From a virus, in IMG/VR virus record IMGVR_UViG_3300013132_000028, positions 1 to 64,000 of that record: a DNA stretch of 64,000 nucleotides; one strand, 5' to 3'. Every line of letters starts with the position of its first letter. Within the stretch, counting starts at the first letter, position 1. The notes beneath the pieces were generated by a model that was not told the origin of the DNA, did not search any database, and saw only the letters and a program-made list of their open reading frames with translations. Below are positions 30,604 through 37,909 of the stretch, one piece after another. A program made the translations under genes and the position numbers.

Positions 30604-30771
30604 CTACATTCTCCTCTCGGTTATCATTGTTTTTACTTCTTCCAGCTTAGCTTTAAGCGCTAGTACCTGTGCGTATTCTAGCCCTGGCTCCCCCAGCGCC
30701 ATTCGAACTGGGCGTAGCAGCTGGTCGTCGTCTAAGTACTTATACACGTACGCACTGTCATTTTTACTCAT
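30604..30771 (-). CDS. Small hypothetical protein, 55 aa (not in ORF track)
   Basis: TAATG overlap with upstream stop; MSKNDSAYVYKYLDDDQLL...; fills the gap exactly. Confidence 0.55.
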   Translation of the reverse strand: MSKNDSAYVYKYLDDDQLLRPVRMALGEPGLEYAQVLALKAKLEEVKTMITERRM

Positions 30772-31334
30772 TACATCTTTCCTGTCTTCTCTCTTGCTCT
30801 TATGGTTTCTAAGTAACTAGGCCCGTGTGTATAGTACCAATGATCTGGCTCTACGAAGTGGAAAAAGACCATGGCTACCTGGTTGGTGGCCGGCGAAGGA
30901 AAAGCCTCTCGCCAGTGCCACTGGTCGTTGCCAAAGTACGCAAGCGACTGGTTTGGTCTAAGCATGTAGGGTCGGTCTGCTACCCAGAGAGCCCAGGGTT
31001 CATTTTGATACACGCACATGTCTATTGTGTACGTGCAAGCGTTGTTATCTCTGTGTCTAAATAAGTTTGCTTTCTCCGTTTCATAGTGCGCAAACAGCGC
31101 ATAGGAAGGTAGAAGAGTGTCGCTGTCAAAAGTTTCTCTGGCTAGCGGTAGTACTGACTCAAATGCCTGTTTGAGGAGTGGCTCAGCCTCTGCCGATATA
31201 CAAAAGCGTCCAAATCCTGGGTCCCAGTGCATCGAGCCGGTACCGCGTTTTTTGAGTACGTCAACTAAACTTTTGTGCATGCCCAAGTCTAGTGTTTCTT
31301 CGATTATCACCGGGTCCGGTCTACGTCTGCCCAC
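30771..31334 (-). CDS. 2OG-Fe(II) oxygenase-like protein
   Basis: LFRHRD (HxD)...HWRE...VFFHFV; start probably GTG 31334 overlapping the upstream TAG. Confidence 0.7.
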   Translation of the reverse strand: MGRRRPDPVIIEETLDLGMHKSLVDVLKKRGTGSMHWDPGFGRFCISAEAEPLLKQAFESVLPLARETFDSDTLLPSYALFAHYETEKANLFRHRDNNACTYTIDMCVYQNEPWALWVADRPYMLRPNQSLAYFGNDQWHWREAFPSPATNQVAMVFFHFVEPDHWYYTHGPSYLETIRAREKTGKM

Positions 31335-35700: not shown

Positions 35701-37909
35701 TGCCAGACGTAAACGTAGCCGTCGGCCCCGTAAACTCTTGAGCACCCACCACGCGGGCGGTTTTCACGACCAGCGGTGCGCTAGAGCCGGCGGTAAAGGT
35801 GATGCGCAGGAAGCCTCCAATGCTTATCGCGCTCGCAAGACTCGGCGCGTTTCCCACGCCTTGTAAGGGCTGCGGGTCCGGAAAGCCAATCGCGGAGCTC
35901 TCGCCGCCGCTGTTTGTCGCCGTGACGGTTCCGGTCCAGAAGACTTCGGCGCAGCCGCTGGCCGTGCGCGTCGTACTGATGGTCTCCACGGTGGTTATTC
36001 CGTTTAGTCCAGTGTTGACCAACAGATTGCCGTTCAAGGAGTATGAGTACGCGGCTATGTTCACCCTGTAGGCAGTCGCCGCCGAGTGGTCGGCGTCTAC
36101 CGCCGGGGCGTCCCACTCAAACAGTACCTGTCTGCCGGTAATGGTGAACCGAAGGTTTGTCGGCGGGTTTGGAGCGGAGGCCTCCACTGAAAAGTTTGCG
36201 GTGTCTACGTAGTCCTGTGAGTCCACCTGCGTCTCGGACGCGTGGCCGTACAGTCTCGCCCTGTAGCGCTTGCCACCAATTAGCGGCACCGTGAGGGTCG
36301 TGGCAGTGTCGTTGTCTACGTACACCGTGTCAATGAGAGCGCCGAAGCTGCAGGGCGGATAGTCTTGCTGGCTGCACGCCGTAGAGTAGCCCGTGCCCGA
36401 GCCAGTGCTGTTAGACGTACTCCTAGAGTAGCTGCAGGCCACCGACGGCAGTGGATATGTGTTTATAGACGTGGTGCAGTACCAGTAGTTTGAGCCCGGT
36501 ATTCTTGGAAGAGGCGTTCCCAGGTCGTACAACTCTATCTTTGTCTGGTCGGAGCCCACGCCCGGTGTCCACGAGATGAGCGCCTGTTGCGCTGCACGAC
36601 TGACCGTGACCGTGACGTTTGTAGGCGGTTGCGGTCTGCCCACTACTGTTATTATCTGGTAAACTGCGCTCGAGTACTGGAACGCACCAGTTGTTCCGCG
36701 CCGACCTCGTACGCGGACGTAGTACGTCACGTTCTCTGGCACCGAGCAGAACAGCGCGTCTCCTCGTTGCCCGACCGAGGTCACGGTGATTATCAAAGGT
36801 TTGACCAGCGTCTGCTCTTCTATTGGCTTGAACCTGTCTGCTTCTGGTATGAGCGCGAACTCCAGCCTGTAGGTACCAGTGTTTGCGGTGGCGCCCGCTG
36901 AAACGTAGTAGTTGCACGACGGGTCTGCTGCCTGTCCGGTGGCCACTATAAGGTTAGTCGGCGGGAGCGGCGCCTCTATGATTGGACCGACGTACGAGTC
37001 TTCTAACGACTCGTCGCTTATGTACAACGCCGGGGTGTAGCCACTGTACTCCACGCCGTCGCTGGACGCGGCGACTCGCACGTACACGTACTCGTCTTCG
37101 TAGGAAGACGAGTTTGGGATCGTAAAGTTGTAGTTTGGCGAGTTTATAGTGCTGACCAGCACGTCTGGCAAATCGCTTAAGGTCCTGGTCCTGTAGTACC
37201 TAAACTTGTAGTCACTCGGCTCAGGCACCCAGGTGCCCGGGTCGGTCGTCAACAGCGCGCCCAGTTTTCCCTCTCCCAGAAGTTTTGGCGGAACTATGTT
37301 TACGGGCACTCCGGTGGACACACGGACGTAGGTGGTCGTAAACACCTCTGTCTGCCCGAGCGCGACTTCTTCGTCGTCGTCGTTGGTGTATATCTTGTTG
37401 CGTGCCGTAATCTTGCAGCGCAGGCGACCGCGTAGCTCTTCGGCGGTCGTGTCTATGGTCAGTAGGTTGCTCTTGTACTTTGCGTTAGTCTCGTCAGCAG
37501 GGTCTACTAAGTCCTCCCAACCTTCGACGGTGCTGTCGCTGGTGTTGTTCTGCCACTGAAACACGATGTCTGTGGGCTTGCGGTAGTCGTCTGGCTCCCA
37601 GTGCGTAAAAAATGAGCGGGCCTGTAAAATCATGCCGTCTGTAACTCTCGTGTCCGCCGGTATCGTCACTCCGTAGCCGACGTCCACTGGCGTAGTCGGC
37701 GAGGTGTCCGAGAACCTGATGGTCGGTAAAAACTTGTTCACCGGGTCGCCTGGAAAGCTCACGAACCAGGTGTCGTTAGAGAAGTTGCGCTGCCAGACTA
37801 CGTTTGGCTTCTGCCACTCGTTCTGTCGGTACAGCTGGACAGTGCGCGCCAGCTTCCAGTTTGAGGCCGCCGTGCCGCTCGTCGCTGCGATTCTCCATTG
37901 TCTTGCCAC
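32711..37909 (-). CDS. Large FN3/Ig, Cys- and Pro-rich virion protein with C-terminal Hint domain
   Basis: PPTNL/PxN...W FN3 starts; Cys modules; PVP/PT linkers; GGGGG|C...TAEHP...THN Hint motifs. Confidence 0.8.
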   Translation of the reverse strand: MARQWRIAATSGTAASNWKLARTVQLYRQNEWQKPNVVWQRNFSNDTWFVSFPGDPVNKFLPTIRFSDTSPTTPVDVGYGVTIPADTRVTDGMILQARSFFTHWEPDDYRKPTDIVFQWQNNTSDSTVEGWEDLVDPADETNAKYKSNLLTIDTTAEELRGRLRCKITARNKIYTNDDDEEVALGQTEVFTTTYVRVSTGVPVNIVPPKLLGEGKLGALLTTDPGTWVPEPSDYKFRYYRTRTLSDLPDVLVSTINSPNYNFTIPNSSSYEDEYVYVRVAASSDGVEYSGYTPALYISDESLEDSYVGPIIEAPLPPTNLIVATGQAADPSCNYYVSAGATANTGTYRLEFALIPEADRFKPIEEQTLVKPLIITVTSVGQRGDALFCSVPENVTYYVRVRGRRGTTGAFQYSSAVYQIITVVGRPQPPTNVTVTVSRAAQQALISWTPGVGSDQTKIELYDLGTPLPRIPGSNYWYCTTSINTYPLPSVACSYSRSTSNSTGSGTGYSTACSQQDYPPCSFGALIDTVYVDNDTATTLTVPLIGGKRYRARLYGHASETQVDSQDYVDTANFSVEASAPNPPTNLRFTITGRQVLFEWDAPAVDADHSAATAYRVNIAAYSYSLNGNLLVNTGLNGITTVETISTTRTASGCAEVFWTGTVTATNSGGESSAIGFPDPQPLQGVGNAPSLASAISIGGFLRITFTAGSSAPLVVKTARVVGAQEFTGPTATFTSGNAGPFVAGQVASVDIGPLSAGQKYYAELFHQSGSCATSSVFTGLVTIGGSAPVNIVPPRILIQSGQINLAPMVIVGYPGTWEPSGTTQEYEYRWYVGAVGAWTADGTGQEKTITGQSYNGKFSALEVRSRTSSNGDWSDWVNAENYIGPYDFSEQRYWYYSCVCSICNGFSGQYTTRNYQFQQVSIGQEIGYPGPQRDCTEAGFLPSQCTSTSCTCNSAMFTASQLDTATYPQYPAQGPEISGCAQVCSGGYGPVGFYATCSAGYVSTYINNDRYCCPVNFCCVKSICDYDSGIYVSPPTFYGCFNTDQSVDTYLPGSFWRELIVCAAGTTSTPYPPVEAAAQIRCAGVPTPVPIPIPVALTGFYCTTRDCGGGCNMYYSPTDRTGSGTCYSTICRPAAEFALYGYPAPCENVPVPIPTPVPIPVPVNSACCNPPEISAECCPYGFGFNQNCTTTDGRPGKFDFCITPQGCANYNTPCVPATVPVPIPTPVPIPVPVANQCCNPPQFTAACCPYGFGVNLPCTNNDREYPRPGRNSYCITPSGCADVVTPCVPDGEGPVPVPVAGFPWNCKTVDCGGGCSTYPSATDVSASGTCFSTQCLPHPQFPAPCPGPVPVPVPTVPVPIPTPVPVPVAPNCNQCDPNLSYYYTTNDPNCPSGIRNWYLCYTPLGCANRFDNLGCATGPVPVPVPVQVPTPVGLPPCPGTITNPFQYTCAELGCQNIGGCTSYAIPCDRQCCNCQGGGPTPTPTPTPTPTPTPTPEPVPPIAPIEIPPFPLDFDPPSFPPFELPTFPPFTIDFPSLPALFSGQSNPTPDPTPPPPSGPYGDPYGDPYGGGGGCIVGSTLVATPNGPVEAQHLRGGDVVYSVRFAELTTDETAYSLPLWSSQTLTPVQMLTTTIQRVHLTRAAMLQISINGDRFTAEHPILVRRDTTYSFTVAYLVQVGDLVLRRGGDTIDDLEWTPVVEKTVIDLPAMAYVFDTEEDDVLFTVNMLTHNLKL
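33426..33473. repeat. (GGCGTC)8 tandem repeat encoding (PT)n
   Basis: Perfect hexamer array seen directly. Confidence 0.95.

Follow-up and report, generated by a model that had tools for sequence, protein, structure and literature searches.

We analyzed a window comprising the first 64 kb (positions 1 to 64,000) of the 117,837-base viral record IMGVR_UViG_3300013132_000028, which belongs to a lake phage and is estimated to be 88% complete, and found that the minus-strand genes between positions 30771 and 37909 form a real and conserved module that is so far undescribed and is built from known enzyme families. The module opens with a 1732-aa tail-appendage gene (32711..37909, GTG start), which comes after the tape-measure, minor-tail and 489-aa genes as the last member of the tail block and is predicted to end in a Hint domain. 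It is followed on the same strand by genes for a 91-aa DUF6171-like mini-protein with six cysteines (MINI; 32379..32654), a 137-aa small partner (ACC; 31969..32382), a 212-aa prolyl-4-hydroxylase-like 2-oxoglutarate (2OG)-Fe(II) oxygenase (P4H; 31334..31972) and a 191-aa second oxygenase (30771..31346). The initial annotation of this DNA had named these five genes in this order, and our check of the open reading frames (ORFs) found both genes and coordinates correct. Across viral contigs, the DUF6171-like gene, P4H-type oxygenases and Pro-rich proteins ending in a Hint domain are found together at a rate far above that of the controls. On its gene content, the system is classed as a putative case of virus-encoded protein proline hydroxylation and virion modification.

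The co-occurrence was observed in surveys of viral contigs from three anchor genes. The MINI survey took 80 loci from the 125 relatives of MINI found in viral contigs, which together with the window made 36 groups at 80% identity; a neighbouring protein was called Pro-rich when it held a 40-residue window with at least 35% Pro, and associations were assessed by Fisher tests. Oxygenases occurred in 10 of the 36 groups and a PF11397 glycosyltransferase in 6. The oxygenases were concentrated in groups with a Pro-rich neighbour (6/7, vs 4/29 of the others; p = 6.7e-4) and ACC in groups with a Cys-rich neighbour (9/15, vs 1/21 of the others; p = 4.3e-4), and a Cys-rich protein of about 440 aa precedes MINI in 25 loci. 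The P4H survey covered the best 80 of 542 relatives in 54 groups, with the oxygenase-free groups of the MINI survey as the control. A Pro-rich ORF was present in 30 of the 54 groups as against 1 of the 26 control groups (p = 4.3e-6), and a Pro-rich or collagen-like ORF in 33. MINI was found in 18, a Hint protein in 13 and the transferase in 10 of these 54 groups, and around the closest relatives of the P4H in the window the order fibre-(ACC)-MINI-P4H-second oxygenase-(glycosyltransferase) recurs.

The Hint survey comprised 57 loci in 16 groups, three of which share contigs with the MINI survey. A gene of the P4H or oxy (oxygenase) family lies downstream in 12 of the 16 groups, often immediately after the Hint gene and in arrays with as many as six members, and an oxygenase is still found in 10 of the 13 groups that remain when those overlapping with the MINI survey are left out. 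MINI occurs in 7/16 groups and ACC in 2/16, and a single group has no cassette gene at all. Our own hidden Markov model (HMM) detected a glycosyltransferase in 5/16 groups, only three of which rest on Pfam-checked relatives; Pfam confirms the transferase in L097 and L119, not in L114. Across the surveyed loci, the upstream proteins have tail-fibre-like N-termini (tail-fibre or minor-tail PHROGs), varied long X-Pro repeats and small Cys modules, and end in either a Hint domain or a Cys-rich tail. The neighbourhood survey for Hint, DUF6171-like and P4H genes that had been proposed as a check on the initial annotation was therefore positive from all three anchors.

Several surveyed loci showed further features. 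One 113-kb viral contig (L088 and L102, the contig of L079) carries two Hint-ended Pro-rich genes with P4H paralogues after each. In several loci, proteins of the DUF6065 family (PF19541, E = 4.9e-34; phrog_7084) alternate with P4H paralogues as a further cassette member, for example at 11300-12055 in L021 and at 11418-12191 and 12886-13593 in L042. In L026 (5215-11122), two collagen-like fibres with Gly-Pro-Thr repeats are followed by MINI, then by an ORF whose CxxxCxxC motif resembles that of radical-SAM proteins and by a gene of the PF11397 family.

In the window, the downstream genes of the module are translationally coupled. A gap of 56 nt, with GGGAG upstream of the MINI ATG, lies between the 1732-aa gene and MINI. 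ATGA overlaps join MINI to ACC and ACC to P4H, P4H and the second oxygenase overlap by 13 nt (or 1 nt), and the second oxygenase overlaps by 1 nt with a 55-aa ORF (30604..30771, minus strand). The coupling through overlapping start and stop codons that had been noted earlier thus holds among the four downstream genes, with the 1732-aa gene itself standing 56 nt apart.

Comparison with the nearest named relative, Actinomycetia phage DSL-LC01 (DNA polymerase, polA, 80% identical), showed that the block is a single insertion or deletion. The two genomes share the gene order minor tail, tail protein, 164-aa protein, kinase, synthase, deaminase and polymerase, and the 164-aa gene (29628-30122) matches DSL-LC01 at 65% identity. 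Between the tail protein and the 164-aa protein, where the window has the block, DSL-LC01 has two unrelated small ORFs. A tblastn search of the DSL-LC01 locus gave no match to the 1732-aa gene, MINI, ACC, either oxygenase or the three small ORFs, which are the 55-aa ORF and two ORFs of 76 and 69 aa (30159..30598, minus strand) that belong to the same insertion or deletion. The whole block is kept in three viral contigs (L001-L003) that are 57-94% identical to it, and the 55-aa ORF is kept only in these close relatives. Searching 50,697 phage records with the region by megablast and blastn gave no match.

We also compared the region with contigs from other sequencing runs. Contigs of 12.7 kb from another freshwater study (runs X4 and X5) follow the window at about 96% identity over 30604-33193 and diverge from it exactly at 33193, the first base of the codon for the first cysteine (Cys1) of the Hint domain. 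This break marks either the edge of a recombined piece or a point where divergence increases abruptly. Given that the match ends at the Hint Cys1, the Hint domain and the cassette appear to travel together on variable fibre bodies. The parts of the 1732-aa gene not covered by these contigs carry no weight for or against this, and the same holds for the outcome that no RNA run was listed as containing the stretch. A third run, which came from a different sample, contained a fraction of 0.71 of the words sampled, and its listed pieces were identical.

The Hint domain, of the bacterial intein-like (BIL) kind, was assigned to residues 1573-1732 (32714..33193, minus strand; Cys1 codon 33191-33193). 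A phmmer search of this region, and of the 204-aa protein that is the longest form of the second oxygenase, found nothing meaningful in PDB; a profile was needed for the former and a fold model for the latter. The Hint profile (A1), built from the window's last 160 residues and four relatives (5 sequences), matched 6tmm/6y75 in PDB with E = 3e-10 and 2lwy, a 'bacterial intein-like domain', with E = 6.9e-10, with true inteins ranking below; Pfam Hint_2 alone reached only E = 0.031. Cys1573 (Cys1) is invariant in all five aligned sequences, and some distant Hint groups have Ser at position 1 or no nucleophile. A block-B T-x-x-H motif (T-A-E-H) and the terminal His-Asn are also present in the window's domain; in L066 and L079, Gln replaces the block-B His. 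The earlier assignment of a terminal Hint domain was thus borne out by both the profile matches and these residues. There is no +1 nucleophile, as Leu follows His-Asn here (Leu, Tyr or Lys across the alignment), and three residues remain after His-Asn (1-9 across the aligned Hint proteins). With Leu at +1 and only three residues left, splicing is excluded. Judging from the residues present, N-terminal cleavage through a thioester is chemically possible.

The whole 1732-aa protein has no Pfam or PHROG match, and its anatomy was taken from composition, slices and profiles. An N-terminal body (residues 1-895; 35225..37909) that is poor in Cys and has weak FN3/Ig signals is followed by a Cys-rich block with duplicated Cys modules on Pro-Val, Pro-Ile and Pro-Thr linkers (residues 896-1477; 33479..35224), delimited by composition per 50 residues, and then by a (Pro-Thr) repeat, a Pro-Phe-rich segment and a Gly run (residues 1478-1572; 33194..33478), all on the minus strand. 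The protein contains 70 Cys and 191 Pro, mostly within residues 896-1572; the N-terminal body holds 8 of the 70 Cys, and Cys modules alternate with the linkers from about residue 1085. Self-BLAST listed no internal repeats, and pairwise alignment revealed two duplicated module types, with 22 of 38 and 32 of 54 positions identical. These counts and alignments agree with the many Cys modules and Pro linkers described in the initial annotation. The Cys-rich block matched no Pfam family, and the N-terminal 890 residues had no tblastn match among the 50,697 phage records. In the upstream proteins of other MINI loci, fn3 was matched with E = 4.7e-11 (L036) and, below threshold, E = 6e-4 (L006).

A relative of the protein on contig L002 is 57-94% identical depending on the segment: 92-94% over residues 1-580, 75% in the rest of the N-terminal body, 74-78% in the distal half, 57% in the segment before the Hint domain, which is the most variable, and 85% in the Hint domain itself. 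Aromatic/Pro stretches resembling this segment also stand ahead of the Hint Cys in L066 and L079, and in L042 they make up the (PPFFPFF)n repeats. The CCG-ACG repeat at window positions 33425-33476 draws contigs of unrelated organisms in all four runs compared, where depth reaches 220 and 'goes back' joints appear, so the assembled repeat length needs caution.

Next, we consider the two oxygenases. P4H matches PF13640 with E = 1.2e-18 and 68.2 bits (cut-off 27; 70 bits in the genome search). Its closest solved relative is the Bacillus anthracis P4H (E = 2.6e-5), and P3H1 is also among the nearest. Among 19 family members, H141-x-D143 of the iron triad is invariant and H194 is present in 89%. 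The solved relatives and the enrichment of Pro-rich neighbours point, indirectly, to peptidyl-proline as the probable substrate. The second oxygenase has a longest ORF of 204 aa (30771-31385, GTG at 31385); since most of the homologues listed have about 177-208 aa, the start is likely the ATG at 31346, giving 191 aa. It matched no Pfam family, and none of the 120 matches listed among its 225 homologues has a precomputed Pfam domain. Its AlphaFold model (predicted local distance difference test, pLDDT, 93.2) matched PHD2 and related chains in Foldseek with E of about 4e-7, a probability of 1.00 and template-modelling scores normalised by the query (TMq) of 0.53-0.64. The top matches were PHD2, Trichoplax PHD, the vCPH of PBCV-1 (5c5t) and AlkB. 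As modelled, then, the second oxygenase is predicted to have the prolyl-hydroxylase-like 2OG-oxygenase (double-stranded beta-helix) fold. H98, D100, H144 and R146 are invariant in 76 sequences of its family and include putative metal ligands. A P4H-like oxygenase and a second 2OG oxygenase had both been called from the sequence, and both calls hold, the former through Pfam and the latter through the model and Foldseek.

The two small proteins between the appendage and the oxygenases are less easily placed. MINI scores below the cut-off of DUF6171 (PF19668; E = 3e-4, 21.5 bits vs 27) and matches phrog_13558 with E = 1.6e-15; 24 of its 30 Atlas matches fall in DUF6171 sets at a score of 0.92. 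Six Cys, one Lys, a Cys-Pro pair and a Trp are invariant across 55 distinct MINI sequences. ACC consists of a disordered N-terminal half and a conserved C-terminal domain of about 60 aa. Its family adjoins MINI in 37 of 81 loci, and 7 of 19 family members match phrog_14370. The model of ACC (pLDDT 87.8) found nothing better than E = 2.6 in a Foldseek search of PDB and nothing at Z >= 2 in a VIA-align comparison with 48,161 chains, and in BFVD it matched only uncharacterised phage proteins. The alignment for this model was deepened with matches of profile A3, which served no other purpose; A3 mixed ACC and MINI parts owing to a fusion protein in the alignment, so that its 2476 matches are not the family size. 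A role for ACC as a tail-fibre assembly chaperone (Tfa; Caudo_TAP or Phage_tail_APC type) was considered on an Atlas structure lead and rejected: the lead reached a TM of only about 0.35, none of the 19 members has such a Pfam match, and neither PHROGs nor the structure searches gave support.

Fusions offer some guidance. ACC and MINI are fused, with a duplicated ACC domain, in L044 and L050. MINI is also fused to a PF11397 (GlcNAc-type) transferase in the 448-aa protein P0002 (59% identical over 76% of the query), and a gene for a glycosyltransferase-MINI fusion comes directly after the Hint gene in L119, L120 and L140. As far as gene architecture goes, these fusions tie MINI to both ACC and the modification enzymes, and the two kinds of fusion point to a possible adaptor or assembly role for MINI, where the initial annotation had suggested a redox or metal chaperone.

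A PF11397 glycosyltransferase also stands alongside P4H in the related loci L021, L068, L097 and L119; the L068 transferase has no solved relative. We take PF11397, from its Pfam description, to be the family of Gnt1. Gnt1 requires the hydroxylated proline of Skp1 and is placed in GT60, which also holds a Thr-directed enzyme (PMC6939170). The acceptor of the phage transferase could therefore be Thr instead of hydroxyproline. The phage's own record has a family-2 (GT2) glycosyltransferase gene, which lies 15 kb from the cassette in another module.

From these results, we propose the following model for the block 30771-37909, which would act as one module producing a post-translationally matured tail appendage. 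The N-terminal body would anchor the 1732-aa protein to the tail, and the small Cys-rich modules would sit on stiff X-Pro linkers. First, the P4H homologue, and probably also the second PHD-fold oxygenase, would hydroxylate linker prolines in the cytoplasm, using O2, Fe(II) and 2OG. Second, the Hint domain would form a thioester at Gly1572-Cys1573 and remove itself, leaving a new Gly C-terminus. Third, MINI and ACC may work on or with the appendage as an assembly, adaptor or enzyme-recruitment pair. In relatives with the PF11397 transferase, hydroxyprolines (or the Thr of Pro-Thr repeats) would probably be glycosylated too. Self-cleavage, proline hydroxylation and the presence of the appendage in the virion are all inferred here from sequence. 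That the oxygenases modify prolines of the appendage is the reading towards which we lean, with modest confidence.

Codon usage was counted in favour of proline modification. CCG makes up 116 of the 191 Pro codons of the 1732-aa gene (61%, vs 36% in 14 other long genes) and ACG 41% of its Thr codons (vs 22%). The phage has three minus-strand tRNA genes, for Thr(CGT), Pro(CGG) and Gln(CTG), at record positions 80263-80336, 91995-92069 and 100215-100286, outside the window, and the enrichment of CCG and ACG fits two of them.

Several observations weigh against this reading. The thresholds for Pro and Cys were set after inspection of the data, the survey groups are phylogenetically non-independent, and some contigs are common to more than one survey. 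Other ORFs of the same genome also have Pro-rich windows of 0.30-0.375. The FN3/Ig domains of the earlier description survive only as weak signals: fn3 matched the N-terminal body below threshold (E = 0.0018-0.005, 17.5-18.9 bits vs a cut-off of 25), as did Ig-like families (E = 0.011-0.075), and none passed the Pfam cut-offs. Pfam and fold searches revealed no resemblance of ACC to known tail-fibre chaperones. The fold of the second oxygenase fits AlkB (TMq 0.52-0.54) nearly as well as it fits prolyl hydroxylases, and hhalign of this enzyme against the P4H family gave a probability of only 30%. No PF11397 match was found in the phage's own 117,837-base record, although the control genomes of that search gave none either. 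The glycosylation considered in the initial annotation is supported only in the related loci; its wider interpretation, a modified surface protein, is in keeping with the co-occurrence of the genes and with the single insertion or deletion. Finally, a Pro-rich neighbour is missing from the available DNA of 24 of the 54 P4H groups, though many of their contigs are short.

This last observation also favours the main rival explanation, in which the oxygenases are accessory 'metabolic' or host-takeover genes acting on host proteins or the 2OG pool, and the end of the structural block is simply a hot spot of gene gain. Arrays of 5-9 oxygenase paralogues in surveyed loci are in line with it. Moreover, cyanomyoviruses carry many 2OG-Fe(II) oxygenase copies, for which 2OG or nitrogen-stress roles, or DNA repair, were proposed (PMC3037559), and the use of P4H by viruses has been called 'cryptic' (PMC9301287). 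However, the presence of oxygenases follows the Pro content of the neighbouring protein, the oxygenases are translationally coupled to fibre-linked genes, and in DSL-LC01 oxygenases and fibre are absent together. In addition, P4H, MINI or a glycosyltransferase starts less than 100 nt after the Hint gene in at least 9 of the 16 Hint groups, as read by eye. We therefore regard this explanation as unlikely, though it deserves to be kept in mind.

A further alternative concerns the substrate. The 1732-aa protein could be a released, adhesin- or matrix-like protein outside the virion, with the Hint domain serving its release or attachment. BIL/Hint domains occur in secreted bacterial proteins and polymorphic toxins, and the failure of the N-terminal 890 residues to match any phage record agrees with such a role. 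However, the gene runs on from the tail block without a change of strand, related proteins that share its C-terminal design have N-termini matching tail-fibre or minor-tail PHROGs, and the three residues after the Hint domain leave no room for toxin cargo. In Erwinia jumbo phages, furthermore, a Hint-ended protein annotated as 'virion structural protein' lies among tail-fibre genes, with no oxygenase nearby (in phage Alexandra, L145, a 480-aa protein at 4014-5456; HMM E = 1.2e-19). A location outside the virion thus seems distinctly improbable to us. A role in DNA modification, in which either or both of the oxygenases would be part of the neighbouring DNA-modification module and oxidise a base or nucleotide as AlkB or TET does, is more doubtful still: the AlkB fold match, the position of the cassette directly upstream of kinase, thymidylate-synthase-like, dCMP deaminase and polymerase genes, and a 5-hydroxymethyldeoxyuridine (5-hmdU) DNA kinase and a dUTPase-like gene in the window count for it and against proline modification, but DSL-LC01 retains the nucleotide genes without the oxygenases, the best solved relatives of the 212-aa enzyme are protein prolyl hydroxylases, and in other phages both oxygenase families follow fibre genes, not nucleotide genes.

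The proline-modification reading has partial parallels in known systems. PBCV-1 likewise encodes a P4H-type 2OG oxygenase (vCPH) and has X-Pro repeat proteins in its genome; peptide substrates of vCPH were reportedly described by Eriksson and colleagues in 1999. However, PBCV-1 has a eukaryotic host and lacks the Hint domain, the DUF6171 partner and the operon-like coupling to one substrate gene. The Skp1 pathway (PhyA, then Gnt1 of GT60) combines a cytoplasmic prolyl hydroxylase with a PF11397-type GlcNAc transferase, and genes of both kinds stand side by side in related phage loci; it differs in that Skp1 has a single target proline as opposed to the long repeats here, and the window's record is without a PF11397 match. 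BIL and Hedgehog-type Hint domains have Cys1, block B and the terminal His-Asn in common with the window's domain, which, lacking a +1 nucleophile, would lead to cleavage or transfer and not to splicing. Unlike other BIL/Hint domains, the one described here closes a phage tail-block protein at its extreme C-terminus, and its link to prolyl hydroxylases recurs in many phages. Phage tailspikes and fibres can carry self-cleaving C-terminal intramolecular chaperone domains of the Peptidase_S74 type. These are likewise C-terminal fibre domains expected to remove themselves, but their fold and chemistry are unrelated, and Pfam scans of the window proteins gave no Peptidase_S74 match. Plant extensins and arabinogalactan proteins have hydroxylated and glycosylated X-Pro repeats that form stiff, protease-resistant rods; they differ in using the eukaryotic secretory pathway, and there is no sequence relation past the P4H family.

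Parts of the module are also found in isolated phages. DUF6171-like ORFs lie within fibre or structural blocks of the cyanophages Sf-CH3 (L141, 6998-7162), Syn9 (L142, 5938-6123) and P-SS2 (L143, 6548-7123); the P-SS2 ORF (gp085) is annotated 'DNA-directed RNAP', and that of Syn9 is mostly unannotated. The closest isolate relative of P4H is in the ACG-2014f cyanophages, where it lies between a collagen-repeat protein, a glycosyltransferase and a 1955-aa tail fibre. Searches of the phage collection with these queries returned no record matching both this kind of Hint domain and P4H. In the literature covered, from which most subscription journals were absent, no description of the module was found, nor anything on DUF6171 by name, on Gnt1/Skp1 hydroxyproline in phage or on cyanophage 2OG-Fe hydroxyproline. 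What turned up on Hint domains and phage tail fibres concerns, in the parts available, terminase inteins. By title and abstract, nothing addressed bacterial intein-like domains in phage fibres, and nothing relevant connected prolyl hydroxylase with a Pro-rich or glycosylated phage virion.

As for the genomic setting, nearly all long ORFs between 15.5 kb and 64 kb lie on the minus strand and, read in that direction, come in the order head genes, tape measure (42443-45988), 318-aa, 676-aa, 489-aa and 1732-aa genes, five short genes, and nucleotide-metabolism and replication genes. The 489-aa tail protein and the 676-aa minor tail protein (37961..41450, minus strand) match phrog_1330 and phrog_1885, the latter with E = 5e-35, and DSL-LC01 has homologues of them whose annotations read minor structural protein and minor tail protein. 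At 15537-19389 on the minus strand, we found genes for WhiB (E = 2.6e-17), a 5-hmdU DNA kinase domain (E = 7e-29) and a dUTPase_2 protein, which suggests an actinophage with DNA hypermodification genes. The WhiB gene and the kinship with DSL-LC01 are both consistent with an actinobacterial host in fresh water. The plus strand carries three giant ORFs of 1049, 656 and 948 aa at 6125-15577, with RCC1 repeats in two and a weak CBM5/12 match in one, and a family-2 glycosyltransferase gene follows them. This region may be a second surface-protein module, and the matching region of DSL-LC01 has collagen-like genes.

Prolyl-hydroxylase-like and other 2OG-Fe(II) oxygenases rank with the most frequent products of 'auxiliary' genes in marine and freshwater phages, and the neighbourhoods reported here tie one oxygenase clade to one substrate class, the Pro-repeat tail appendages that often end in a Hint domain. 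We tentatively suggest, as a possibility we hold with less than even confidence, that many aquatic phages have a dedicated pathway, acting in the cytoplasm, for hydroxylating the prolines of hypervariable tail appendages and, in some lineages, for glycosylating them too. In this pathway, the Hint domain would be a removable handle that docks the enzymes and then cuts itself off, or that joins the new C-terminus to another molecule through its thioester. If this is true, the Hint domain, MINI and the enzymes would be a portable unit attachable to different fibre bodies, and DUF6171 would be the adaptor domain of the pathway. The abundant phage 'P4H / 2OG-Fe(II) oxygenase auxiliary genes' would then gain a structural job in host recognition, and the host-recognition organs of phages could bear eukaryote-like hydroxyproline (and glycan) modifications.

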